From a virus: a DNA stretch of 47,211 nt. The notes under the pieces were generated by a model. That model was not told where the DNA came from. It saw only the letters and a list, made by a program, of their open reading frames with translations, and ran no database searches. Shown piece after piece: positions 3,157 through 47,211 of the stretch; within the stretch, counting starts at the first letter, position 1; every line of letters begins with the position of its first letter. The stretch is from the IMG/VR virus record IMGVR_UViG_3300045988_030428. One strand, given 5' to 3'. Both the position numbers and the translations under genes were made by a program.

Positions 3157-4263
3157 ATGCAGCGATGTGTAAAATGCAACATGGAGATCCCCGACGGGTC
3201 TCTTTTTTGTTGCTGGTGTGGGAAAAAGCAAATCGTACAGCGCAGCCGAACGCGAGGAAACGGGCAGGGAAACGCATACCAGCGCGGGAAAACGTGGACG
3301 GCCCGTTGGACTGAAAAAACATACATCGACGAAAACGGGAAGCTTCAGCAAAAGATGAAAACGAAAGGCGGCTTTGCATCCAAGCGCGCGGCTCTGCAAT
3401 ACGCTGCAAACCCGCCCAAGGAGGCCAAGCGAAGCTGCACCCTCCGTGAATACTACAAGACATACCAAAAAGGGGATTACTTGTCTCTTTCCAACGACCG
3501 GCAGGGCGCTTCGGATAAGGCATTTCAGCGGTTGGCGGAGATCGCGGACTGCGAAATTGATAGTCTTACAATTATGCAGATACAAGATGTGATCGACCAC
3601 AACGCCAGCACCTATTACACGCGGAAGGACATGAAAACCGTTGTGTCCCATTGCTACAATCTTGCGATTGCCGAAAAGCAAACCACGGTGAATCTTGCGA
3701 AATACATAAAGCTTCCCGTCCTCGAAGAAAAGTCCCCGGAGCCGTTTTCCGATGCTGATATTAAGAAACTATGGGCGGCTTACGAAAAGGATCATTTCGT
3801 CGGATTTGTTCTGGTAATGATTTATACTGGAATGATGCCAGGCGAGCTGCTCCGGCTCAAAAAGGACATGATCGACTTTAATAAAAATGAGATTGTCAAA
3901 GGCGGCATAAAAACGAAAAAGCGCAAGGAAACGCCGATGGTTTTCCCAGATTTTCTCGCTCCGCTGCTTCAATCCTTGTGCGATGAAAGCGACTCACGCA
4001 TTGGGAACGTATGCTGCATAAACAAAGACAACTTTTACAAACGATACTATGAGTGCTTAGAGTTGGCCGATGTGCAGAAACTCCCACCGTATTCCTGCCG
4101 TCATACGACCGCAACTGCCCTCGCCTCCAAAAACATTGACCCATTTACGATCAAGGAGATCATGCGGCACACAAAGATAACGACGACGCAGCGATATGTC
4201 CATCCGGATATGAGCGGCATGATCGACGCCGTGAATCTGTTGCAAGAAGATACAAACAAGTAA
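3157..4263 (+). CDS. int: Tyrosine recombinase/integrase with N-terminal zinc ribbon
   Basis: AAGGAGG RBS. CVKCNMEIPDGSLFCCWCG is the zinc ribbon. The C-terminus ...YSCRHTTATALA...IMRHTKITTTQRYVH carries the R/H-x-x-R/Y catalytic signature. Confidence 0.9.
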   Translation: MQRCVKCNMEIPDGSLFCCWCGKKQIVQRSRTRGNGQGNAYQRGKTWTARWTEKTYIDENGKLQQKMKTKGGFASKRAALQYAANPPKEAKRSCTLREYYKTYQKGDYLSLSNDRQGASDKAFQRLAEIADCEIDSLTIMQIQDVIDHNASTYYTRKDMKTVVSHCYNLAIAEKQTTVNLAKYIKLPVLEEKSPEPFSDADIKKLWAAYEKDHFVGFVLVMIYTGMMPGELLRLKKDMIDFNKNEIVKGGIKTKKRKETPMVFPDFLAPLLQSLCDESDSRIGNVCCINKDNFYKRYYECLELADVQKLPPYSCRHTTATALASKNIDPFTIKEIMRHTKITTTQRYVHPDMSGMIDAVNLLQEDTNK

Positions 4264-6530: not shown

Positions 6531-6873
6531 ATATCGCCTCACCTTCTCCGCAGCCGCTTTTCTTGTTGTTATTAGGATATGCGGTCACAACCTCGCCCGA
6601 TCCGCCGCAGACAGACACAACAACGTGTGTATATTTGAGCTTCGGGTAGTATGTAGCAATTTTCGATTCTTTTGTGTATATCCGACGTTCGTCCAGCGGA
6701 GGGTTTGTGTCGTGACTCGGTAAAATTAGCTCCGGCTCCTTGATCGTCTCCACGATTGCGTCTACGTTTGAAACCATGATGCTGTGGTTAAGCGCCACAT
6801 GAGAATCCCACTGCTCTTTTGTGCAGAATACTTTTATCCCGCTTCTGTCAACAACTTCGAAAAAATTAGGCAT
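6514..6873 (-). CDS. DUF4258/Barnase-EndoU-RelE-like putative nuclease toxin (119 aa)
   Basis: The ATG overlaps the upstream stop (TGATG). The pattern W..H....H...IVETIKEPELI...RRIYTK...YTHVVVSV...GEVVTAYP resembles DUF4258/PBECR-type toxins. The assignment comes from motif reading only. Confidence 0.4.
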   Translation of the reverse strand: MPNFFEVVDRSGIKVFCTKEQWDSHVALNHSIMVSNVDAIVETIKEPELILPSHDTNPPLDERRIYTKESKIATYYPKLKYTHVVVSVCGGSGEVVTAYPNNNKKSGCGEGEAIYVAEE

Positions 6874-10883: not shown

Positions 10884-12601
10884 AATGACGCACCTCCCGC
10901 GCTGAGCAGTTCGGCAGCCGCCCATGCCCCATTTACGACGCGAAGGATTTTCCCGTTATCAGCGGTTGTAACAGCCGGAACATCGCGCGGGATCTCCACG
11001 TTTTTCGCCGCGCTTCCATCATAGCTTGTCGTCGAATTTCCAATCTTGATGTTGAGCGAATAAGGATTTTTGAGTGCCGTCGGAATCGTGGGGATATCAT
11101 CCTTGGATGCAACATCGCTCGTTGTCACCTCCAGAGTCCCAAAGGCGTTGATCATAACAGCGAGGTAAGAAGTAATGCCGTTAATTGTCCCGATCCCGCC
11201 GAACACACACATCATGCTAGAAACCAGGAGTGCCGGAAGTGTCGCCGGAAGGTTTTCAAAATCCGAGAGTACCGCCTTGCAGATGGGCGCAAATCCCGCC
11301 GTCTGTGCAGCTACGATCTGTGCAGCCGTCTGCGTCGTTGCGGGGGACGCCACGCTGCCGGTCACATTGAAATACCAGTTTGTTTTCGTCTCGCCCGTCT
11401 GCCCATTCACGCTTTTAACCGGCACATCATCCGCGCTGATGGGCGTAAACCCGAGCGCGCCGACAACCGCATCCCTCGTGACATTCGCATTGTCCCCGTC
11501 TGCGCCCTTCGGAATTCCGAGGTTAAGCGTAGGCTGTGCGGCAGTTCCGCCCATGCTGGCCGTAGCCGCGCTTCCTGCGGGCAGCGTAGTCACCGTCCCG
11601 ATCTTGATATCCGGCGTCACGCCATCCTTGCCGGGTGCGCCATCCTTTCCGGGAGCGCCCTGTGGGCCGGTCGCACCCCTCGACGGCTTCCCGGTGTCCT
11701 CGGTGCCGAGATACCAGTTCCCGTTTTCTCCGATCGTCGGCGTAATGCCGTTTTTACCGTCTGCGCCCTTCGGAATTCCGAGGTTAAGCGTAGGCTGTGC
11801 GGCAGTTCCGCCCATGCTGGCCGTAGCCGCGCTTCCTGCGGGCAGCGTAGTCACCGTCCCGATCTTGATATCCGGCGTCACGCCATCCTTGCCGGGTGCG
11901 CCATCCTTTCCGGGAGCGCCCTGTGGGCCGGTCGCACCCCTCGACGGCTTCCCGGTGTCCTCGGTGCCGAGATACCAGTTCCCGTTTTCTCCGATCGTCG
12001 GCGTAATGCCGTTTTTACCGTCTGCGCCCTTGAGATCGGCAATGGCAATGAGGTTTTCCCACGTCGCGCCATCGTCGTTGCTGTACTGGATGTAGCCATC
12101 CGCGACGCGCATATCGATGGTGCCCGCTCCTCCGGAGCCTCCGCCGGATCGTGCCGCCTCGTTGACAGCCGCGACAAGGTTCTCCTTGGCCTTTGTTGTC
12201 AGGTCGTTCAGATTGCCGATCTGCGCCTGAATCGCATCGAACCAGCGCTTGGCCGGCTCGTCCGGCGGCTCTGCGCCTGCTTCGAGCGCCGGAACAACGA
12301 TAAAATCAAATTTGTTGGATTTCGCCAGCGTATCGCCAAGGTGCCACTGCAATTCACACTGTCCAAATCCGGCCTTGTCCGTATCCGCGCTCGTTACCGT
12401 CCAATAGGCCGTAAGGCCCTCGACCGTAAGCGTCACCGGATACGCCACAGAATCGCCCTTGCGCTTTACCAGAAGCGCCGGAGTGCCGCCGGGGAATACT
12501 TCCTCGAAAGGGGCCAGCGTAAACGCGATCCTTGCGGCCTCATTTTCTCCCGTCCGCCCAAGCGGTATCGGGTATTTGTGCGTAGCTTTAATTTCAACCA
12601 T
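10880..12601 (-). CDS. Tail fibre/baseplate upper protein-like with collagen-like G-X-Y tracts and an internal 87-aa exact duplication
   Basis: 573 aa. It has a BppU-like N-terminus. GPQGAPGKDGAPGKDG occurs twice, and the 87-aa block KGADGKNGITPTIGENGNWYLG...TLNLGIP is repeated exactly. Confidence 0.75.
   Translation of the reverse strand: MVEIKATHKYPIPLGRTGENEAARIAFTLAPFEEVFPGGTPALLVKRKGDSVAYPVTLTVEGLTAYWTVTSADTDKAGFGQCELQWHLGDTLAKSNKFDFIVVPALEAGAEPPDEPAKRWFDAIQAQIGNLNDLTTKAKENLVAAVNEAARSGGGSGGAGTIDMRVADGYIQYSNDDGATWENLIAIADLKGADGKNGITPTIGENGNWYLGTEDTGKPSRGATGPQGAPGKDGAPGKDGVTPDIKIGTVTTLPAGSAATASMGGTAAQPTLNLGIPKGADGKNGITPTIGENGNWYLGTEDTGKPSRGATGPQGAPGKDGAPGKDGVTPDIKIGTVTTLPAGSAATASMGGTAAQPTLNLGIPKGADGDNANVTRDAVVGALGFTPISADDVPVKSVNGQTGETKTNWYFNVTGSVASPATTQTAAQIVAAQTAGFAPICKAVLSDFENLPATLPALLVSSMMCVFGGIGTINGITSYLAVMINAFGTLEVTTSDVASKDDIPTIPTALKNPYSLNIKIGNSTTSYDGSAAKNVEIPRDVPAVTTADNGKILRVVNGAWAAAELLSAGGASF
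11496..12031. repeat. Perfect 261-bp tandem duplication (about 2.05 copies) inside the tail-fibre gene
   Basis: 11496..11756 is identical to 11757..12017 by eye. The first 14 nt recur again at 12018..12031. Confidence 0.9.
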
Positions 12602-25068: not shown

Positions 25069-25145
25069 TGGTGGGCCGTCTCGGAGTCGAACCGAGATGT
25101 TACCGGTTATGAGCCGGTCGCTCTAGCCATTTGAGATAACGGCCC
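25069..25145 (-). tRNA. tRNA with CAT anticodon (elongator Met or Ile2-lysidine type, not initiator)
   Basis: Minus strand: GGGCCGT-TA-TCTC-AAATGGCTA-GAGC-G-ACCGG-CTCATAA-CCGGT-AACAT-CTCGG-TTCGACT-CCGAG-ACGGCCC-A-CCA (77 nt). The 1:72 position is a G-C pair. Confidence 0.85.
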
Positions 25146-25937: not shown

Positions 25938-26013
25938 TGGCGGGACATGAAGGGCTTGAACCTCCGACAGGCGGATTAACAGTCCGCTGCTCTCCCAACT
26001 GAGCTAATGTCCC
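25938..26013 (-). tRNA. tRNA-Asn (GTT)
   Basis: Minus strand: GGGACAT-TA-GCTC-AGTTGGGA-GAGC-A-GCGGA-CTGTTAA-TCCGC-CTGTC-GGAGG-TTCAAGC-CCTTC-ATGTCCC-G-CCA (76 nt). Clean cloverleaf. Confidence 0.9.
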
Positions 26014-28732: not shown

Positions 28733-29161
28733 GAACTCACCCCGTAAAAATCAAAATTGCGCTTTTGCGTCGGCTGCGCGTGCGCAAGCTAGCTTGCGGC
28801 TGCGCTGCTAGCAAAAGCATAACATTTTTTGCACGGGAAAATCAAGGCTTTGGGGCGTGGCGCGTGGAAGTGGTGCCCGTTTGCGTGCATCACTTTGCGC
28901 CGTGCGCTGCTCCGTTGCGTGATCGTCGGCGGAATCGTGGCAGATATGGGAGTTTTGCGCAGGGGCGCGTATATTACAAGAGTGGTGCATGCTCGGATTG
29001 AAAGGAGTAATCAACGCGCGTACATTGTGCGCCGCTGTGGTGCATCCGGTGCGCGGGGGCTCCCAGACATGCGAGCCGCTGGCGCTCCCGCATTGCGAAG
29101 ATAGATACTGCACAGGATAGCAAGAGCACCGACCGCCGTTAATCGGTAGCCGGTGCATGAT

Positions 29162-29425
29162 TTACTGTGCTTTTTTAAGCTGCTCGATGTCTTGCGACAT
29201 GATCCGAATAACTTGTTTCAACATAAGAATATCATCTTCAAGCTCTTCAACTTTTGACTTTGTGGCGAGCGTGTCAAGCAATGTTTGCTGTCCCTCTGCC
29301 AAAAGTTCAAGTTGCTTTGAAATCGTGTTTTCAATAATTACTTGAATATCGTTCACAGCTCCGCGCCTTGCTTCGTCGGTGATCTCCTTTACTTGCTGCA
29401 ATTCAACATCATTTAGCATTTGCAT
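29162..29425 (-). CDS. Coiled-coil protein (87 aa), second gene of the RHH operon
   Basis: All-helical heptad-like sequence. It overlaps the stop of the RHH gene. Confidence 0.55.
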   Translation of the reverse strand: MQMLNDVELQQVKEITDEARRGAVNDIQVIIENTISKQLELLAEGQQTLLDTLATKSKVEELEDDILMLKQVIRIMSQDIEQLKKAQ

Positions 29426-29609
29426 TCCCTTCCTTGTACGTGTAATTTTCCATTGCCTGCCGTAGCACCGTGTTCACCTTGTCACCGTTTGCGGCGCAGG
29501 CGGCCTTGAAATCCTCCAGCAGCGTTTTTTTAACTTTGATCGTTTGGCAGATCATGTTTTCAGAATCCCATTTTTTATTTGCTCTGCGGCGAGCATCTGT
29601 AATTGCCAT
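29409..29609 (-). CDS. Ribbon-helix-helix (CopG/Arc-like) DNA-binding protein
   Basis: GAGGTGA RBS and ATG at 29609. MAITDARRRANKKWDSENMICQTIKVKKTLLEDFKAACAANGDKVNTVLRQAME fits the RHH pattern. Confidence 0.65.
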   Translation of the reverse strand: MAITDARRRANKKWDSENMICQTIKVKKTLLEDFKAACAANGDKVNTVLRQAMENYTYKEGNANAK

Positions 29610-29628
29610 GTTATCACCTCGCAAACAT

Positions 29629-29656
29629 ATTATCATACCGCGCTAAACGTTGTAAA
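29629..29656 (-). promoter_or_regulatory. Promoter of the RHH operon, overlapping one ACGTTGTA repeat
   Basis: Minus strand: TTTACA (29656-29651), a 16-nt spacer, then GATAAT (29634-29629). Confidence 0.45.
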
Positions 29657-29704
29657 GTACAAATATGCACAAAATGTACGTTGTATCTTTGTATGCTTTA
29701 TCAA

Positions 29705-29733
29705 TTGCAATTGCACGTTGTATCGTGTACAAT
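29705..29733 (+). promoter_or_regulatory. Promoter of the + strand four-gene island
   Basis: TTGCAA (29705-29710), a 17-nt spacer, then TACAAT (29728-29733). The spacer contains an ACGTTGTA repeat (29715-29722). Confidence 0.5.
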
Positions 29734-29801
29734 AATCATGTAATCAAGAGATGCCTCCCCTCCCCTATCGGGAGCGGCAACGTTGAAAAGGAGAAATTAA
29801 T

Positions 29802-29981
29802 ATGTTTATGTTTATGAGCAAGCAGAAGATAGCCGAAGAAAAGGAAAGACTTATCGACGAACGTAACGCCCTTATTAAAAAAGCGCAGGAAATTGAATCG
29901 AAGAAGGGCGAAAAATTTTCTTGGAGCTACTTCCAGCGCGCCGAGGCGATCTTGGAGCAGATCGCAAAGCTCAGATCGTAA
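29802..29981 (+). CDS. Small helical protein (59 aa), island gene 1
   Basis: AAAGGAG RBS. Product: MFMFMSKQKIAEEKERLIDERNALIKKAQEIESKKGEKFSWSYFQRAEAILEQIAKLRS. It is one codon below the ORF-track cut-off. Confidence 0.5.
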   Translation: MFMFMSKQKIAEEKERLIDERNALIKKAQEIESKKGEKFSWSYFQRAEAILEQIAKLRS

Positions 29982-30065
29982 ATCCCCTGAAGAGTCTTTG
30001 AAAATTAAGACGAAACGCCTTCGGGCGTCGGGACAACCCTGAAATTGTTTTGGAGGGATATTAAA

Positions 30066-30407
30066 ATGGCAAAATTGTATTTCGTGGAGACTAACGGTGG
30101 CTTTATGGCAGTTGCCACCGCAACCGATCCGGAGCATACGCGCGAGGATGGCAGAGCCTGCTATATGAGGCAGGACGGCAACGAAGAAAGCTACCCGTGC
30201 AGAAATCCGCGTTGGGCTGATGCAGGAGTAGCAGAGCGCGCGGAAATCGCTACGGCGTGGCTCAAGCAACTTGCAGAGTCCACCGACTTCGAATCGCTCT
30301 ATTCGGATTGCGATTGTGATAGCGGATTCTGCGGCGTTTATACCGCGGGCGAATTCTGGCGCGACATCGCCACTGGTGATGATATGATTGCCGCCATCGA
30401 TTTTTGA
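30066..30407 (+). CDS. Acidic hypothetical protein (113 aa), island gene 2
   Basis: GGAGGG RBS and ATG at 30066. Product: MAKLYFVETNGGFMAVATATDPEHTREDGRACYMRQDG... Confidence 0.6.
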   Translation: MAKLYFVETNGGFMAVATATDPEHTREDGRACYMRQDGNEESYPCRNPRWADAGVAERAEIATAWLKQLAESTDFESLYSDCDCDSGFCGVYTAGEFWRDIATGDDMIAAIDF

Positions 30408-30477
30408 TGATTCGGGGCCTCTGGGCGGTTGAGCCGATCAGCCGCACCACATAATCTTAAATCAGGAGGAACAAACA

Positions 30478-31131
30478 ATGAAAATCATTAACAACTGTGA
30501 AGAATTCCGCGTGATCGACCTTTTGAACCAGTATGACGATCTCTACTTTGAAGGCCTGAACATCTCGGCCCATCCGTACCGCAACAGCCTTGTTATTATC
30601 GACTTGGCGAACGCGATGCAGAACGGCAAGACCTGCACGCGCTGGCTTTTCTCGGTCAGCCCGTGGAAGATGGACGCCGACCGCCTCTGCATGACTGAAT
30701 ATGTAGAGATGGCCGCGCCGGAGTGCGACACCCTCGCGGAGCTTGTCGCATGGCTTCGCGCTGGGACGCCTATGCGCGAGGTGGACGGCCTGACGGTCTC
30801 GGCAGGGACACAGCCGGGAAACCGGACGTTTTCGCCCTTCGCTCCCGTGAAACCCGTGAAACTGGGAGACCGACTGAACGCCGGGGCGGTTGCAAAAGCC
30901 ATTCGCGCCGGGCAGATCGTCGCAGGCCGCACCGATGGCAGATACACGGACGACTACGCATTTGACGCGGCTACAGACTTCGGACGTGGAGAGATCGACG
31001 TGCAGGCGTTCGCGCAGGACATCTACGAGAACCCGCGCGGCTGGCGCTTCTGGTGGCACGACGACACGCGGCGCGAGATCGTCGCAGCGTGCCACACGTT
31101 CGACTATAAAACGCTTTCTGTTGCGGGCTGA
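30478..31131 (+). CDS. Hypothetical protein (217 aa), island gene 3
   Basis: AGGAGG RBS. No motif recognised. Confidence 0.65.
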   Translation: MKIINNCEEFRVIDLLNQYDDLYFEGLNISAHPYRNSLVIIDLANAMQNGKTCTRWLFSVSPWKMDADRLCMTEYVEMAAPECDTLAELVAWLRAGTPMREVDGLTVSAGTQPGNRTFSPFAPVKPVKLGDRLNAGAVAKAIRAGQIVAGRTDGRYTDDYAFDAATDFGRGEIDVQAFAQDIYENPRGWRFWWHDDTRREIVAACHTFDYKTLSVAG

Positions 31132-31179
31132 CCGCCACAGGATGAACGGAACTTATTTCTTCGATGGAGGGAAAACAGC

Positions 31180-31911
31180 ATGAAAATTACAAGCATGGGC
31201 GGGCAAGTTCCCGCCCTGTTCGCCGATATGCTTAACCAGCCGCATTTGCTAATTGCTGGCGCGTCCGGCTCCGGTAAATCCGTTTTGCTTAATGGACTGG
31301 TGTGCGCTATCCTGCGCCATCATCCAAACCAGATGCAAATGATTCTTATCGATCCGAAGCGGACAGAGCTTAACGAATATGCCGCGATGCCGCACACACT
31401 GCGTCACGCCACGGAACACGGCGACATCATAGCGGCGCTTGATTATGCGATGGGCATTGTAAACGCCCGCTACAAGGACATGCAACGGCGCAGGATGCGC
31501 ACATACGACGGCGCGAACGTGTATGTCATCATCGAAGAGTTCGCCGACCTCATGACCACGGCAAAGAAAGAGACATTGCCGACCGTTCAGCGCCTTTGCC
31601 AGATCGGGCGCGCCGCAAAAGTGCATGTTATTCTTGTTACGCAATGCCCGCTTGCAACGATCATCCCGACGGCGGTTAAAGTCAATTTTACGGCCATTTG
31701 CGGCCTGCACACCGCGACACGGCAGCAAAGCCGGAATATCTTAGATATGCCCGGCTTGGAGCAGCTCCCGAGATACGGACAGTGTATCTATCAAACGCCC
31801 GCCGGAGTTTGGCGGTATGATGTCCCTTATACCGGATGCGACGAGATCGAAGCGGTCACGACGTTTTACCGGAAGCAACGCTCATTTCTGCAAAGAGTCT
31901 TTGCGAGATAA
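31180..31911 (+). CDS. FtsK/SpoIIIE-family ATPase, motor domain only (243 aa)
   Basis: GGAGGG RBS. HLLIAGASGSGKSVLLN is Walker A. Also present: ILIDPKRTEL, VYVIIEEFADLM (Walker B), GRAAKVHVILVTQCP and SRNILDMPGLEQL. No TM or gamma domain is seen. Confidence 0.8.
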   Translation: MKITSMGGQVPALFADMLNQPHLLIAGASGSGKSVLLNGLVCAILRHHPNQMQMILIDPKRTELNEYAAMPHTLRHATEHGDIIAALDYAMGIVNARYKDMQRRRMRTYDGANVYVIIEEFADLMTTAKKETLPTVQRLCQIGRAAKVHVILVTQCPLATIIPTAVKVNFTAICGLHTATRQQSRNILDMPGLEQLPRYGQCIYQTPAGVWRYDVPYTGCDEIEAVTTFYRKQRSFLQRVFAR

Positions 31912-31914
31912 GAT

Positions 31915-31945
31915 AACCCCGCCCACATCGGGCGGGGTTCTTTTT
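31915..31945 (+). terminator. Rho-independent terminator closing the island (convergent with the early operon)
   Basis: aaccccgccc (31915-31924) pairs with gggcggggtt (31930-31939), followed by cttttt. Confidence 0.8.
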
Positions 31946-31963: not shown

Positions 31964-32152
31964 TTATTCCGTGTCTCCGCTATCTTCTCTTTCTTCTTTG
32001 TTCTTCCCGTTTTTCTGCAATGACGCCCGCAGAAACGCAGTTATCAGGATGTTCGCCTGTTCTTCTGTTGCGCCCGCGTTTATCGTAGCTTTGTAAAACA
32101 GCAGCGACATTTCTGCAAGCGCTCCAACGGCGTCAATGAGTTCGCCCATCAT
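31964..32152 (-). CDS. Small hypothetical protein (62 aa)
   Basis: The ATG overlaps the RuvC-like stop (ATGA). Product: MMGELIDAVGALAEMSLLFYKATINAGATEEQANILITAFLRASLQKNG... Confidence 0.5.
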   Translation of the reverse strand: MMGELIDAVGALAEMSLLFYKATINAGATEEQANILITAFLRASLQKNGKNKEEREDSGDTE

Positions 32153-32655
32153 ATCCGAATCCCCTTTATAAATTTGTCGTAGTACGTCGTAGCTACCGCC
32201 ATAGCCGCCCACATGTCGGCGGAGAAGCCGAAGAAAAAGCCCGGCTGTTTCTTTGTGCCTTTCCCGAAGTTCGGCTGTCCGGGCGCGTAGCGGTCCGCCA
32301 GCGCCTGCCGGATGTTGCCATCCTTCGCCCTCGGCGAGCCGCACAGGCAAAGCTTTTCTTCCCGCCGGTAGATATACCCCATCCGGCGGAAGCCCCGCGT
32401 TAGCGCACGCTCCCAATATCGGCCTATCCATACGCACGTATCGAAGACTTCTGCACCGACCGCCATGCCCATTCCGGCGATCATCTCAATCGCAAAATCT
32501 GTTTCTGCGCTTTCTGCGATCTCGGAAATTATCCGCATCATTTCTGCGTTCTCTACCTTCCCGACACGAAGCACACGCCTGATTTCTGCCTCATCGTATT
32601 CGGCCAAGACATAGCCGCTTCTGACGTTGCCGGGGTCAATGGATAATATTTTCAT
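32149..32655 (-). CDS. RuvC-like Holliday junction resolvase
   Basis: MKILSIDPGNVRSGYVL is the N-terminal catalytic Asp motif. 168 aa. Confidence 0.7.
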   Translation of the reverse strand: MKILSIDPGNVRSGYVLAEYDEAEIRRVLRVGKVENAEMMRIISEIAESAETDFAIEMIAGMGMAVGAEVFDTCVWIGRYWERALTRGFRRMGYIYRREEKLCLCGSPRAKDGNIRQALADRYAPGQPNFGKGTKKQPGFFFGFSADMWAAMAVATTYYDKFIKGIRI

Positions 32656-32839
32656 CTTCAGCCTCTTTCTGCATCGCGTCAACACGCCGCTTAAGCCTTT
32701 CTGCGCGTCGCAGATGGTTTTCTGCCCGTGATATTATTCGCGTGACTGTAGACCTGTTTACGCCGTATCTGCGGGCTATTTCGCCGGTTCTGACGCCGCT
32801 CATGTAGAGCAGATAGAATTCCTCCTGCCTGTCCGTCAT
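32636..32839 (-). CDS. Sigma70 region-4-like/HTH transcriptional regulator (late activator candidate)
   Basis: 67 aa. FYLLYMSGVRTGEIARRYGVNRSTVTRIISRAENHL. Confidence 0.6.
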   Translation of the reverse strand: MTDRQEEFYLLYMSGVRTGEIARRYGVNRSTVTRIISRAENHLRRAERLKRRVDAMQKEAEDENIIH

Positions 32840-37774: not shown

Positions 37775-38283
37775 AGTTCTTCCTCCACATACCGCCAGCT
37801 CTGCGGCGGGCGGGTGATGGGCACCGGTTCTGCTCCGAATTTTGTCTCCCGCAGGCCGGTAAACGCCCACAGATCGCGCGGGTGATCGTAAATTCTTAGG
37901 TTGGAAATATGCCAGCCGTATAATCCATGTGCGCCGTTTGCATACTTTCGAATCTCATTGGCAGATAGGCAAGTATGCAGGATGTCTTCTTCGCTCAGCC
38001 AAAAAAGACTATTCGCAAAAAGATTTGTCACACGGTAGCAGTTAAAATCCCCTATGACTTTACCGTTTCCACATTTATCAAACATATTGTGGCTATGGTC
38101 ATCCACATAGGAATATCGTGGCCCTGTCCAAAACTGTTCTTTCGAATCCTTCGTGCAATAGATGTAGACCTTAAATGGTCCATCTAACTGAGGACGCCTT
38201 TTGCGCACCTCGATAGTTTTCTGCCCGTTTATGATCTTCTCACACCACTCCGGGCGAATGCTGATCAAAACAGCTTTACTCAT
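37762..38283 (-). CDS. ASCH (PUA-like) domain protein
   Basis: MSKAVLISIRPEWCEKIINGQKTIEVRKRRP is the ASCH N-terminal signature. Confidence 0.7.
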   Translation of the reverse strand: MSKAVLISIRPEWCEKIINGQKTIEVRKRRPQLDGPFKVYIYCTKDSKEQFWTGPRYSYVDDHSHNMFDKCGNGKVIGDFNCYRVTNLFANSLFWLSEEDILHTCLSANEIRKYANGAHGLYGWHISNLRIYDHPRDLWAFTGLRETKFGAEPVPITRPPQSWRYVEEELWND

Positions 38284-38803
38284 GCTTGCCTCCTTCCTCC
38301 GGCGCTCCCGGCGATTCTAGCTTCATAAAGCAGCCCCAAAATGTTTTTGCCTTTTTTCCGCTTCTGTGCCCGAACAGTGGCTTCTCTCCGATTGCTTCCC
38401 ACACTTTTTTTGCCTCAATCTGCACCTCCGACCACTTGAAGATCAAAACCCCATCCGGTTTCAAAACACGCATACACTCGCGAAACCCATCATGCAGCAT
38501 CTGCGGCCAGTTGTCGCTTAGCACACCGTATTTCTTCCGCATCCACGAGTTTTCACCTGCACGCTCCAAATGTGGAGGATCGAAGATCACAAGCGTGAAT
38601 GTATCATCTGCGAACGGAAGATCCGTGAAGTCACATTGTATATCAGGGGCTATCACACATTTCCGTTCAGAATCATTCTTCGTGCTTTTCCAGATTCCAG
38701 TGTATGATTCGCGCCTGCTATCGCAATACACTGCGGCCGGATGCGCCTTGTCGAACCAGATCGTGCGGGAACCGCACGTAACATCAAGAATTTTCTTTTC
38801 CAT
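38276..38803 (-). CDS. DNA methyltransferase (N6-adenine/N4-cytosine type, DPPH motif)
   Basis: ILDVTCGS is the SAM motif. LVIFDPPHL is motif IV (DPP[YH]). 175 aa. Confidence 0.6.
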   Translation of the reverse strand: MEKKILDVTCGSRTIWFDKAHPAAVYCDSRRESYTGIWKSTKNDSERKCVIAPDIQCDFTDLPFADDTFTLVIFDPPHLERAGENSWMRKKYGVLSDNWPQMLHDGFRECMRVLKPDGVLIFKWSEVQIEAKKVWEAIGEKPLFGHRSGKKAKTFWGCFMKLESPGAPEEGGKHE

Positions 38804-39179
38804 TGTGTGCCTCCTGCGCTTCCGGCAGCGGCATCCAGTGGGTGACTATACTGCCAAGGCAGTCCCGCATAGCTATTCCGTCATATCTTCTCCATGTATC
38901 CGCGCTTGTGCGGTACGCCTCGCCGACAAATACGCCGTCCGTAGCAAGGACGCGTTTTCCCGGTTCCGGACTCCGTTCCTCCACGCTGATCCACTGCGGC
39001 ACCTTCTCCCGCAGCGCCGCGTTCTCGGTGGTCAGGCGCTCGATCACGTTAGCAGCTGCAAACTCGATGTATTCCCGCCGATCTTGGATTCCTCCGACCT
39101 TGCAGTTTTCGCACGCGTCGTCGTGTCCAAGCCCCTTCGCGCAGCACCGCAGTGCCTGTATAATTTCCTTGTCTGTCAT
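38784..39179 (-). CDS. DUF551-domain protein
   Basis: WISVEERSPEPGKRVLATDG...VTHWMPLPEAQE matches the DUF551 pattern. Confidence 0.6.
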   Translation of the reverse strand: MTDKEIIQALRCCAKGLGHDDACENCKVGGIQDRREYIEFAAANVIERLTTENAALREKVPQWISVEERSPEPGKRVLATDGVFVGEAYRTSADTWRRYDGIAMRDCLGSIVTHWMPLPEAQEAHNGKENS

Positions 39180-40045
39180 ATATCCTCCATTCCTTCAAGA
39201 ACCATTTGTCCCGGCAGCACGCCGTCCTCCAGACTCCAGTGCAGGACGTCTTCGCCGGTCTGCCAATCGCACGGCAGGCCGCGGCTGCGGCGCTCCTCGA
39301 TCATCCGGCCATAAGCCCGGATGTAGGCATCCCGGTATCCGGGGTAGCGCGCGAGCTGCACCTTCCGGTGCTTGCCCGCCATCGGGCAATTGATGCAGCC
39401 CACGCGATCTTCGCCGCAGGCGTAAAGCGGATTCATACAGATCTTTTCTGCTGCGCAGTAATCCCAGATGGATTCGGTCGGCCAATCGATAATCGGATTG
39501 ACCGTTCGGGTCCCCTTGAGCTGGCAATTTTCTATCAGCATCCGGCTTTCGTCATTGTCGTTCATCAGTGTCAGCCGCTTGGATTTATCCCTGTGCAGGG
39601 CCTCCATAACGCCACGGGATTTGCGCTTTTGCGATTCCTCCCAGCGGACGCCGGTCGCGATCCACCTGCCACGTCCGCTGGTCTCTTTGAGCGCCGCGCA
39701 GCAGTAGCGCATAATGCGTGTCGGCGGCACCAGCTTCAGCGGGATTAGTCGCCACATGGTCATGTACGTCCCATCCGGCTGCTTGTGCTTATCGATATCG
39801 CACGGTACGCCCGCCAACTCCAGCCTTCGGAATGTTCCCCGCACATGCCAGACGGTCTCCGGCGCATCAGCTGTCGTCAGCGAGTGCAGCACCTCATACG
39901 GGATTCCTGCCGCGCCCGCCAGATGCAGCAGCACGTCAGAGTCCTTCCCCCCGGAATACGTGACCACCAGCGGCTGCTTGTAGAGCCGTAAGCTCATATC
40001 CGAGGCCATCCGCAGCCGCTCAATCGCGGTTTGTTCTAAGTCCAT
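39176..40045 (-). CDS. PAPS reductase-like PP-loop ATPase family protein
   Basis: [16 protein letters not shown] is the PP-loop SGGKDS motif. 289 aa with a Cys-rich C-half ([12 protein letters not shown]). Confidence 0.75.
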
Positions 40046-40971
40046 CTGTCCATCTCCTCCATCAATGCCTTAAAAATCGGGTATGCCTGCTGCGGCACTA
40101 CAGCGTTTCCGAGGCATTTAAGTCTGTCCACCCTGGCGGGAATCCCATGAGCCACTCTACCCACATCGGGTTCAGTTGCCCAGCAACGTCCGTCCGCAAG
40201 CTCCTGTGATTGTCCCCACCGTGCGTCCCCTGCGCATCCGCTGCACATGGCGTCGTAAACAGTTTCATTGCCACTCTCTGCGTCAGATTGCATTTCCCCG
40301 GATCTTTTTTCCTGCTCGGCGGCACAGATTTCAGCGTGTCTTTGTATTCGTTCGCGCGCGGCGTCGGCCATAGCCTCACCGCTGACGGCAAGTCCAGGCT
40401 GTGTCGGCTGCCTGCTTTCTGCTGCGTGCTCCGCATCCGCTCCTTTCCGTAGTCCATCCTCGTCGGCGTCGGCCACATCTGCGATTCCGACGAAGAATAC
40501 TCTTGATCGTCTGTGCCAAGCTCCGACAGCCGCAGCCTCAAAATTAAACACGACGACGTGATAGCCAGCACGCTCCAGATCCTTTGCCACCTGCCCGGCG
40601 GCAATCTTGATGATTCCAGATACGTTTTCACCGACAACGCAACGCGGGCGCAGCTCGGTGATAACTCGGAGCATCTCCGGCCAGAGGTATCGATCATCCC
40701 CTTTGCCCTTTTGCTTTCCAGCCACGGAGAAGGGCTGGCATGGGAATCCGCCGGAAATAACGTCAACTGTTCGTAGGCCTGTCCGCTCATAAAAACTCTC
40801 CTTTGTCAGCGTCCGGACATCACGCCAGCGCGGCACGTCCGGCCAGTGCTTTTCCAGCACCTTCGTCGGGTAGTCGGCAAACTCACACTGCCCGACGGTC
40901 GTAAATCCTGCCCACTCGGCAGCTAAATCCAGCCCGCCGATCCCGGTAAACAGGCTCAGATGCGTCAGCAT
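40036..40971 (-). CDS. dcm: DNA (cytosine-5)-methyltransferase; its central region looks out of frame (see finding)
   Basis: Motif [37 protein letters not shown] and X LGNAVVPQ are all in this frame. The 120 codons between VIII and X read as acidic/Ala-rich low complexity. Confidence 0.7.
40098..40790 (-). other. Alternative (+1) frame ORF inside dcm, encoding a TRD-like WPTP repeat segment and an EWLMGFPxGW motif
   Basis: 230 codons. From 40478 it reads [11 protein letters not shown]...[12 protein letters not shown]...[12 protein letters not shown]...[20 protein letters not shown]. Confidence 0.45.
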
Positions 40972-46871: not shown

Positions 46872-47211
46872 TCAACCATCGGCTACCTCCCTGAACTCGC
46901 CAGCTACAAGTTCATACCATGTGTCTGGCTTGATTCTCACGCCATCAACGAATTCAGTCTTTACGCAAATAGGCACGAATCTTTGCTTTTTATCAGAGTA
47001 CTTCCATTCCGAAAGCGTAACCCAACTTCCGATTTTTGCTTTCACTTTTGAGCTGTGCCCTGCGCAGCAAATAACTGAATCTTCTCCTGTGCTCTCAATC
47101 TTCGCGGCATAGCCAGAAGAGCCGATCTTCGCGGCATTGCCAGAAGAGCCGATCTTCGCGGCATCGCCAGAAGAGCCGATCTGCGCGGCATTGCCAGAAG
47201 AGCCGATCTGC
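46872..47211 (-). CDS. Repeat-containing early protein, C-terminal part (continuation of 1..674)
   Basis: In frame with the repeats: ...AAKIGSSGYAAKIESTGEDSVICCAGHSSKVKAKIGSWVTLSEWKYSDKKQRFVPICVKTEFVDGVRIKPDTWYELVAGEFREVADG, with stop TGA at 46874-46872. Confidence 0.7.
   Translation of the reverse strand, partial: QIGSSGNAAQIGSSGDAAKIGSSGNAAKIGSSGYAAKIESTGEDSVICCAGHSSKVKAKIGSWVTLSEWKYSDKKQRFVPICVKTEFVDGVRIKPDTWYELVAGEFREVADG
47098..47211. repeat. 27-bp coding tandem repeats (about 4 copies at this end)
   Basis: Same unit as 1..314. Units start at 47112, 47139, 47166 and 47193. Several carry the cttcgc (Lys) variant. Confidence 0.95.

Follow-up and report, generated by a model that had tools for sequence, protein, structure and literature searches.

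A stand-alone FtsK/SpoIIIE-type ATPase gene with exchangeable upstream genes at the packaging-module boundary of a gut siphophage

Gene content and control elements of the island

The 47,211-nucleotide IMG/VR record IMGVR_UViG_3300045988_030428, referred to below at its full length as the window, is the genome of a temperate siphophage of 47 kb from the human gut, and at 29802-31945 it carries a plus-strand island of four genes, the last of which encodes a stand-alone ATPase of the FtsK/SpoIIIE type. The four open reading frames listed in an earlier note on this DNA are all present as described there. The first, g1 (29802-29981), encodes a helical protein of 59 aa with basic and acidic residues; g2 (30066-30407) encodes 113 aa from its ATG at 30066, or 120 aa if an upstream TTG at 30045 were used; g3 (30478-31131) encodes an alpha/beta protein of 217 aa; and g4 (31180-31911) encodes a minimal FtsK/SpoIIIE-type P-loop ATPase of 243 aa. 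Among related phages g4 is the sole constant gene of the island, and g1, g2 and g3 form part of its variable cargo. Comparison with relatives gave ratios of non-synonymous to synonymous substitution rates (dN/dS) of 0.22 for g2, 0.18 for g3 and 0.10 for g4, indicating purifying selection, and g1 was judged to be a real gene from its conserved homologues only (a family at 40-69% identity). The strong GGAGG-type ribosome-binding site (RBS) that had been claimed for each gene was also found, as AAGGAG or GGAGG at 6-9 nt upstream.

The island lies exactly where the early/middle operon ends and the packaging operon starts, on the strand of the lysogeny genes. This strand holds the tyrosine integrase (3157-4263, plus strand) and two helix-turn-helix (HTH) repressor-like genes, and nearly all remaining genes are on the minus strand. 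A location between early and late minus-strand regions had been proposed, and the gene order agrees with it: on one side are the Holliday-junction resolvase and a sigma-like HTH protein, which belong to the early/middle genes together with Erf, a NinB-like protein and a replication initiator, and on the other side follow an Arc-like protein, a PHROG 33872 protein, terS, terL, two tRNAs, the portal, and the head and tail genes.

A divergent control region of 165 bp (29637-29801) separates g1 from the minus-strand gene of the Arc-like (ribbon-helix-helix, RHH) protein, a candidate regulator of 75 aa (29409-29636), and contains a promoter, repeats, a palindrome and a hairpin in the 5' untranslated region (UTR). 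The promoter TTGCAA-17-TACAAT (29705-29733) described in the earlier note is present, but near-consensus is too strong a term for it, as it scores just 9 out of 12 and 13 matches as good as this one occur in 5 kb, compared with 4.6 expected from shuffles. We regard it as credible because its position is conserved in relatives, not because of its own score: TTGACT-17-TATAAT or a close variant stands at the aligned position in eight relatives, in which the three repeats are conserved too. These ACGTTGTA-type repeats lie at 29646-29664, 29672-29687 and 29709-29724, one of them between the -35 and -10 elements, and the palindrome TGCAATTGCA (29705-29714) lies over the -35 element. A promoter-like site on the minus strand runs from 29656 to 29629, and the 5' UTR hairpin (29760-29774) is kept in relatives with a different sequence.

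The Arc-like protein matches the Arc-like repressor family PHROG 582 weakly (E 0.007), and the divergent position is occupied by an Arc-like gene in one relative (L044) and by genes for small HTH proteins in two others (L046 and L048). No 11-mer is common to the control region and the regions around the repressor-like genes, a result that is neutral with respect to control by the main repressor. The simplest reading is that the neighbouring Arc-like protein would control the island locally. The pairing of a strong host-type promoter with the gene of a small RHH or HTH repressor is familiar from the immI region of P22 (mnt, arc, ant) and from Aca-controlled anti-CRISPR operons, which are short, accessory and independently oriented among late genes. 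The island shares their layout of regulator, promoter and accessory operon, a likeness that we take as a regulatory analogy only; unlike in those operons, the cargo contains no recognisable antirepressor or anti-CRISPR family, and the function of the regulator is proposed here from the weak Arc-like match and the operator-like repeats.

At its far end the island is closed by an intrinsic terminator (31915-31945), for which a 10-bp stem had been predicted. The stem (31915-31939) indeed has 10 pairs, 8 of them G-C, and is followed by CTTTTTCT. The terminator was found on both strands in the scan and also serves the converging minus-strand operon, which ends at 31964. Each of the 11 relatives inspected has a hairpin and a T-run after the homologous gene, and in distant ones the sequence of the hairpin differs. 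One relative (L003, ~6740-6760) has the same stem with an inverted loop (GATGT versus ACATC in the window), as expected had the whole palindromic element flipped.

Conservation of the locus and its genomic surroundings

Close relatives (22 from IMG/VR) were searched by tblastn with the window genes, and the open reading frames upstream of the ATPase were then clustered. The g4 gene is found in all 22, g3 in 16, a g1-like gene in ~14 and full-length g2 in ~8, and other cargo families (c8, 245 aa; c3, 91 aa; c14; c16) stand upstream of g4 in many combinations. In relatives whose backbone is 96-98% identical, g1 has an identity of 40-69% or is absent, and one locus (L037) contains g3 without an FtsK-like gene. 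The identity of g4 correlates with that of terS (Spearman 0.81) and of the resolvase (0.83), and its dN/dS compares with 0.11 for the resolvase. Because it is present in 22 of 22 relatives, tracks terS and the resolvase in identity and is under strong purifying selection, we class g4 as a backbone gene, and in these comparisons it behaves as a vertically inherited core gene.

This pattern runs counter to the idea that the three upstream proteins are partners of the ATPase, since among close relatives they are shuffled, lost or replaced while g4 stays, and 36 families adjoin it clade-wide. The neighbourhood survey of the FtsK-like gene gave a fixed ATPase and interchangeable upstream genes; on this comparative evidence, the island is best described as one backbone gene with exchangeable cargo and not as a four-component system. 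Its earlier description as a moron, that is, an autonomous, anti-oriented cassette, holds in part. The island has its own promoter and terminator, both of which are conserved, and the patchy presence of a moron applies to g1-g3 but not to g4, because the latter occurs in 22 of 22 relatives and co-diverges with the backbone.

The same distribution bears on the possibility that the island is a prophage-expressed exclusion or defence system, in which a membrane-tethered ATPase, alone or with the cargo, would block or expel foreign DNA and thereby protect the lysogen. A host-type promoter and a terminator of its own, a location on the strand that carries the integrase and repressor genes, the lack of an operator motif common with the repressor region, and the PHROG category of the g4 family ('moron, auxiliary metabolic gene and host takeover') would all be in keeping with such a role. 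However, g4 does not have the patchy distribution that is typical of prophage defence genes, being universal and diverging together with the backbone. It has no nuclease or other effector linked to it, and its cargo lacks conservation. Related FtsK-like genes have moreover been reported in a lytic phage (PMC13299392), and we regard exclusion or defence as unlikely.

A trace of cargo exchange is visible in the window itself. Directly upstream of the ATPase, 14 of 21 relatives carry c3, which overlaps the ATPase start codon (ATGA). The spacer between g3 and g4 (31142-31183, plus strand) encodes MNGTYFFDGGKTA, corresponding to the last 13 codons of c3: the C-terminus of c3 reads ...ENGTYFFDGGKTA, and the window open reading frame 30890-31183 ends ...MNGTYFFDGGKTA. 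We read this spacer, which carries the ATPase RBS, as a deletion or replacement scar of c3 in which the RBS was preserved. The translationally coupled c3 was rejected as an obligate partner of the ATPase, since the window and 7 of 21 relatives lack it and more distant lineages have unrelated genes in its place.

Ten cargo proteins of relatives gave nothing above threshold against Pfam. Within the window, g2 is strongly acidic (22 Asp and Glu versus 9 Lys and Arg, net charge -13), and its confident AlphaFold2 (AF2) model has a predicted local-distance difference test score (pLDDT) of 83.6 and a predicted template-modelling score (pTM) of 0.81. We found 22 homologues of g2, and those with 54% identity lie in unrelated contigs of 131-152 kb, within long arrays of small genes that contain DUF3560, ORF6N and Lar-like restriction-alleviation genes and have no FtsK-like gene nearby. 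The acidity of g2 and its neighbours elsewhere point weakly, and only as a hint, to host takeover or counter-defence. The AF2 model of g3, also confident (pLDDT 90.4, pTM 0.83), has one match in BFVD, an unnamed viral protein (E 1.3e-8); matches of the g2 and g3 models to PCNA and other clamps were rejected as noise, with template-modelling (TM) scores of 0.15-0.2. An exhaustive profile search with g3 returned 513 clusters at 50% identity, and the domain is also present inside proteins of 400-1200 aa. Two of these long proteins (P0243 and P0258) have a short 'KKNGF(K/R)(W/F)...W' module at one end, with no match in Pfam, of a type that we take to occur in plasmid and conjugative-element proteins. 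One of the ten long g3-family proteins scanned combines the g3-type domain with LPD25, which was defined in conjugative elements' "polyvalent proteins" (PMC5512222).

To cover more distant homologues (47-66% identity), genes were called on five metagenomic contigs and on 80 IMG/VR loci retrieved with the family profile; for the IMG/VR loci a simple caller was used and checked against the window, and de-duplication at 90% identity left 43 lineages. The island is flanked on both sides by opposite-strand genes in 34 of the 43 lineages, usually consists of 2-6 genes and has the ATPase last in its run in 29 of 41. On the convergent side, terS lies within five genes in 33 of 41, directly adjacent in 27, and 26 of 35 have terL or the portal on the other side. 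The first opposite-strand gene encodes at most 110 aa in 27 of 35 de-duplicated loci. The terS genes of distant lineages belong to PHROG 606, the family of the window terS, and the island separates terS from terL in most lineages; in the window lineage it is located just upstream of terS. The 195 island proteins from 74 IMG/VR loci fall into 106 families, and 36 families occur directly upstream of the ATPase, the commonest in 13 of 65 loci. The conserved feature, as judged from these gene orders, is the layout: 2-6 genes on the reverse strand, next to or within the packaging module, with a small divergent RHH or HTH regulator, a host-type promoter, the ATPase last, and a terminator.

The variation around this architecture includes relatives with a D5 primase (L046, L048 and most of L065-L137), in which terS is the last gene of the early/middle operon and is convergent with the FtsK-like gene, an unusual case of terS and terL being split by an island. 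In two further loci the FtsK-like gene is found in the middle of a run of small co-directional genes, ~18 in L050 (5195-10494) and, in L096, at least 40, which reach both ends of the locus.

The replication module varies among these phages (Erf/initiator type in the window, D5 primase-helicase type in L046 and L048), whereas the packaging link is constant, and one might expect from this that the ATPase is a packaging or concatemer helper, which together with terminase would feed, untangle or clear concatemeric DNA before headful or cos cutting. The tight clade-wide linkage to terS, terL and the portal, the position between terS and terL in most lineages, and the retention of this link while the replication module changes argue for such a helper, as do weak matches of g4 to Pox_A32 and to a 'terminase large subunit' PHROG; for another phage, a role of this kind has been proposed (PMC13299392). 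In contrast, the opposite strand, host-type promoter, separate regulator and terminator imply that the island is not co-transcribed with the late genes, a complete conventional set of terS, terL and portal is present, and the linkage may merely reflect a permissive insertion site at a module boundary. We consider a helper role very unlikely. As a packaging motor of the A32/FtsK type, g4, which scores 26.9 bits with Pox_A32, was rejected because the window phage has a conventional terS and terL and an SPP1-type portal.

The genome around the island is complete and was circularly assembled, its first 21 bases being the same as its last 21 (terminal overlap). A 27-bp in-frame tandem repeat with ~16 copies in all (3-314 and 47098-47209) spans the genome junction inside a minus-strand gene, homologues of which carry DUF7666 and a faint collagen match. 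In the tail region, a 573-aa minus-strand gene contains a perfect 261-bp direct repeat of 2.1 copies (11496-12031). Also on the minus strand, a PAPS-reductase-like gene with a DndC-like fold lies between two DNA methyltransferase genes (38276-40971); this trio, found again in L055 and L140, may be a DNA-modification cluster. The genes of tRNA-Met (25069-25145) and tRNA-Asn (25938-26013) stand on the minus strand between the portal and terL, in 1.1 kb without other clear genes, and the Rfam scan returned these two tRNAs and nothing else. Between terS and the PHROG 33872 gene, ~430 bp (28733-29161) contain no credible gene and have no Rfam match, and are a candidate for the pac/cos region or a late promoter. 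On the other side of the island, the minus-strand open reading frames 31964-32437 and 32149-32685 overlap; the GTG-started long form of the former is probably spurious, and its final ~61 codons (31964-32149), which lie downstream of the resolvase gene, are the only part that resembles a genuine small gene. A nucleotide search of the island against GenBank phages gave two chance matches only, of 40-50 nt, and no FtsK-like gene is present in the 15.6 kb examined around terS/terL of Clostridium phage Maintenon, the closest cultured relative by terL (48% identity). In the search for a host, a GTDB scan gave one metagenome-assembled genome, and the integrase led to phage-sized contigs only.

The ATPase and its C-terminal tail

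The motifs that had led to the recognition of g4 as an FtsK/SpoIIIE ATPase core are all in its translation, and the assignment is confirmed by matches to Pfam PF01580 FtsK_SpoIIIE (110.6 bits against a cut-off of 24, E 1e-31) and to PHROG 1358 "FtsK/SpoIIIE-like protein" (2.3e-49), as well as by FtsK motor structures as best matches in the PDB (~5e-30). With the NCBIfam FtsK equivalog the score is 103 bits against a cut-off of 1566. Transmembrane, linker and gamma domains had been noted as missing, which is borne out, and the alpha domain is lacking too. The protein starts ~20 residues before Walker A and has no hydrophobic segment except a buried core strand; no transmembrane segment was found in any of the four island proteins. 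Residue 13 of g4 falls opposite residue 207 of the crystallised PaFtsK construct, so that ~200 residues of alpha domain have no counterpart in g4. The alignment with FtsK stops at the last beta-domain helix and leaves ~12 residues, so there is no gamma winged-helix domain (KOPS/XerD), and ~30 residues between the two matched halves are absent. Judged by these alignments, g4 is the beta (RecA-like) domain alone.

Residue conservation in the family was assessed on 17 diverse homologues, in which Walker A (G27-S34), the catalytic E120, the arginine finger R144 and the sensor Q155 are invariant. The DNA-contact residues of PaFtsK, taken from a cryo-electron microscopy study of FtsK on DNA (PMC7321959), were mapped onto the alignment. 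The arginine finger R620 of PaFtsK corresponds to R144; the loop I contact R661 corresponds to R185, which is invariant in the family; the loop II contact K643 corresponds to K167, which is nearly invariant; and the loop I contact K657 corresponds to a basic residue at 177-181, a position that is variable in the family. Of the four basic positions through which PaFtsK contacts DNA, three are thus retained, and the fourth, R632, is not. With cellular FtsK/SpoIIIE, to which its identity is ~30-35%, g4 shares the RecA-like beta domain, Walker A, catalytic Glu, arginine finger and sensor Gln; at the DNA-contact positions the agreement is partial (K643, R661 and the K657 region, but not R632), and g4 looks like an active ATPase that could plausibly engage DNA.

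After the last beta-domain helix, every family member continues for ~10-12 residues that are variable in sequence and alike in character. In 121 sequences the last 12 residues have a mean net charge of +3.8, compared with +0.29 in stretches from inside the same proteins, and contain many Trp, Phe and Tyr residues. In the window phage this tail is cationic and amphipathic, with the sequence RSFLQRVFAR. The membrane-targeting helix of E. coli MinD has the sequence KGFLKRLFGG, and the spacing of hydrophobic and basic residues is the same in both. By this analogy, the tail of g4 is a candidate peripheral membrane anchor that would replace the missing membrane domain.

The earlier note could name no defence, exclusion or partition system that the island matches, and in our searches no known defence, partition or conjugation system matched either: PADLOC-DB v2 gave matches for g4 alone (SspH, mad8 and HerA) and none for g1-g3. 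The C-terminus of DndH/SspH and mad8 of the MADS system have the same ATPase fold as g4 (PADLOC SspH 1.4e-21, mad8 1.2e-18), and mad8 is likewise a small protein of ~314 aa. Their scores for g4 (66-74 bits) are below the 110.6 bits of Pfam FtsK_SpoIIIE, and no other components of these systems (nuclease, DndF/G, SspF/G, mad genes) were found in the island or, as far as scanned, in the window. We attribute the SspH and mad8 matches to the common ATPase fold only. For exclusion or defence, the recurrent reuse of HerA/FtsK domains in defence systems such as DndH/SspH and MADS (PMC10853773) is a point in favour, and the cationic tail could put the ATPase at the membrane, the site of DNA entry; the restriction of the PADLOC match to the ATPase fold is a point against.

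FtsK-family ATPases are also used by mobile elements, as coupling proteins in Firmicutes (TcpA/Orf21 type) and, in the case of TraB, as the sole transfer protein of Streptomyces plasmids (PMC10853773; PMC4447253). Like g4 these proteins belong to the FtsK family, and they act on double-stranded or transferred DNA; in NCBIfam, g4 has weak matches to TraB, VirB4 and TraD. One could therefore envisage g4 as a coupling protein or TraB-like pump that moves phage or prophage DNA between cells. However, membrane anchors are found in TraB and in the coupling proteins; TraB has, in addition, a DNA-recognition domain at its C-terminus, and the coupling proteins use a relaxase and a type IV secretion system (T4SS). 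In contrast, g4 has neither a membrane segment nor a DNA-recognition domain, its TraB match amounts to 23 bits against a cut-off of 800, and the 34 window proteins scanned gave no match to a relaxase, T4SS or other transfer-gene family. We give this conjugation-like role hardly any weight.

Phage FtsK-like genes and the role of the island

FtsK/SpoIIIE-like genes of phages have been catalogued before, and the window locus is a member of a widespread class. A tblastn search of GenBank phages gave 358 records with an FtsK-like gene, of which 237 are from Bacillus phages and 52 from Mycobacterium phages, with Listeria, Staphylococcus and Geobacillus phages also represented. The protein search gave 6073 metagenomic homologues at E<=1e-10, of which the top 120 all range from 232 to 294 aa. 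The role of these genes has been stated as unknown for B. cereus-group phages (PMC3335513), Cluster J mycobacteriophages (PMC3706429), Streptomyces phages (PMC13587820) and a rhizobial podovirus (PMC13299392).

The high frequency of FtsK-like genes in Bacillus phages, and the link to host development that was suggested for Streptomyces phages (PMC13587820), would fit host takeover, in which a membrane-targeted beta-domain protein mixes or competes with host FtsK/SpoIIIE and alters segregation, division or, in spore formers, forespore DNA transfer. As g4 is just the oligomerising ATPase domain of FtsK, and as its tail could bring it to the membrane, the anatomy of the protein would permit such interference. 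However, an identity of ~30-35% to cellular FtsK is low for the formation of mixed rings, a pure poison subunit would have no need of the strictly conserved catalytic residues, and such genes are also carried by Listeria, Staphylococcus and Mycobacterium phages, whose hosts form no endospores. Host takeover by g4 has, in our view, only a slim chance of being correct.

The Ku-like protein gp206 of mycobacteriophage Omega is needed for circularisation of the genome upon infection. The operon in which it is encoded consists of 39 small genes on the reverse strand and starts at the genome end beside the packaging genes, and the FtsK-like gp203 is encoded fourth from its end (PMC3706429). The position of gp203 is comparable to that of g4, close to the end of an operon of small genes on the reverse strand, which in Omega begins at the packaging end. 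The proteins of PHROG 1358, including gp203, belong to the same ATPase family as g4, with 33-34% identity over the motor core, and those of Omega, Cluster J and the B. cereus-group phage phIS3501 (p50) also have no N-terminal membrane domain (PMC3706429, PMC3335513); p50 differs in that its gene lies near the integrase and not near packaging genes (PMC3335513). By analogy, we count the Omega operon, with gp203 and gp206, as a parallel from an unrelated phage that favours a role in genome establishment.

The explanation that we prefer, tentatively and with confidence somewhat short of even, is that the island is a self-regulated operon combining variable cargo with a DNA motor for the phage's own DNA handling early in infection. 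It builds on the anatomy of the locus, the pattern of conservation, the intact catalytic residues, and the lack of partners and of alpha, gamma and membrane domains, and our confidence is high for the anatomy and low for the mechanism. On the timing of expression, the formation of a ring, the substrate, and what the tail and the cargo do, we infer the following. Host RNA polymerase would initiate at the sigma-A-type promoter, the divergent Arc-like protein would bind the ACGTTGTA repeats and limit expression, and the transcript would terminate at the hairpin past g4. A ring of g4 on double-stranded DNA would then drive DNA movement or protein clearing at the expense of ATP, with the basic aromatic tail as a tether to the membrane (or to DNA) that substitutes for a membrane domain. 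Most likely g4 would serve the phage itself by handling the phage genome shortly after it enters the cell (internalisation, circularisation or establishment), and would not be a host-protective defence; the cargo proteins would most likely be host-takeover or counter-defence factors, for which the fusion of a g3-type domain to LPD25 and the gene arrays around g2 relatives are hints.

Several observations weigh against this explanation. At the Walker B position 119 the window sub-lineage has Glu, whereas most homologues have Asp. The main loop II DNA-contact Arg of PaFtsK, R632, is replaced by C156 in g4 and by Cys in almost all family members, a further difference from cellular FtsK/SpoIIIE in addition to the missing membrane, linker, alpha and gamma domains. 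In the FtsK hexamer the alpha domain makes up one of two stacked rings; with this domain missing from g4, ring assembly is put forward only as a proposal, and binding of the tail to DNA or to a partner protein is equally compatible with its composition. The cargo offers no functional clue by similarity: as the earlier note had it, g1-g3 are without recognisable motifs, with no match in Pfam, PHROG, PADLOC or NCBIfam, and Foldseek searches against the PDB found no solved structure matching the g2 model (best E 0.9, TM at most 0.2) or the g3 model (best E 0.095, TM 0.18). The location on the same strand as the integrase and repressor-like genes fits expression in the lysogen equally well. Finally, the parallel with Omega is incomplete, since gp203 has 442 aa and 34% identity to g4, and is reported to have a C-terminal DNA-binding gamma-like domain (PMC3706429).

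A more specific version of the self-regulated operon can be formulated, in which a minimal FtsK motor, tethered to the membrane in the manner of MinD, pulls in, secures or circularises the phage's own DNA at the start of infection in a large clade of gut-Firmicute siphophages, and the operon, located beside the packaging end of the genome, serves as a landing pad for exchangeable counter-defence genes. We consider this version distinctly unlikely.

Stand-alone FtsK-like genes are among the commonest genes of "known fold, unknown role" in phages of Gram-positive bacteria, and we found no experiment on their role in the literature searched. The locus described here provides testable handles on them: a backbone ATPase without a fixed partner, a conserved cationic tail that may substitute for a membrane domain, and a separately regulated reverse-strand island at the boundary of the packaging module. 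Together with terS or terL as the second anchor, the ATPase marks a hot spot with >100 families of small accessory proteins, which is a convenient place for mining candidate host-takeover or anti-defence genes in gut phages. If the membrane-tethered version were true, g4 and its relatives would constitute a phage-encoded genome-establishment motor.

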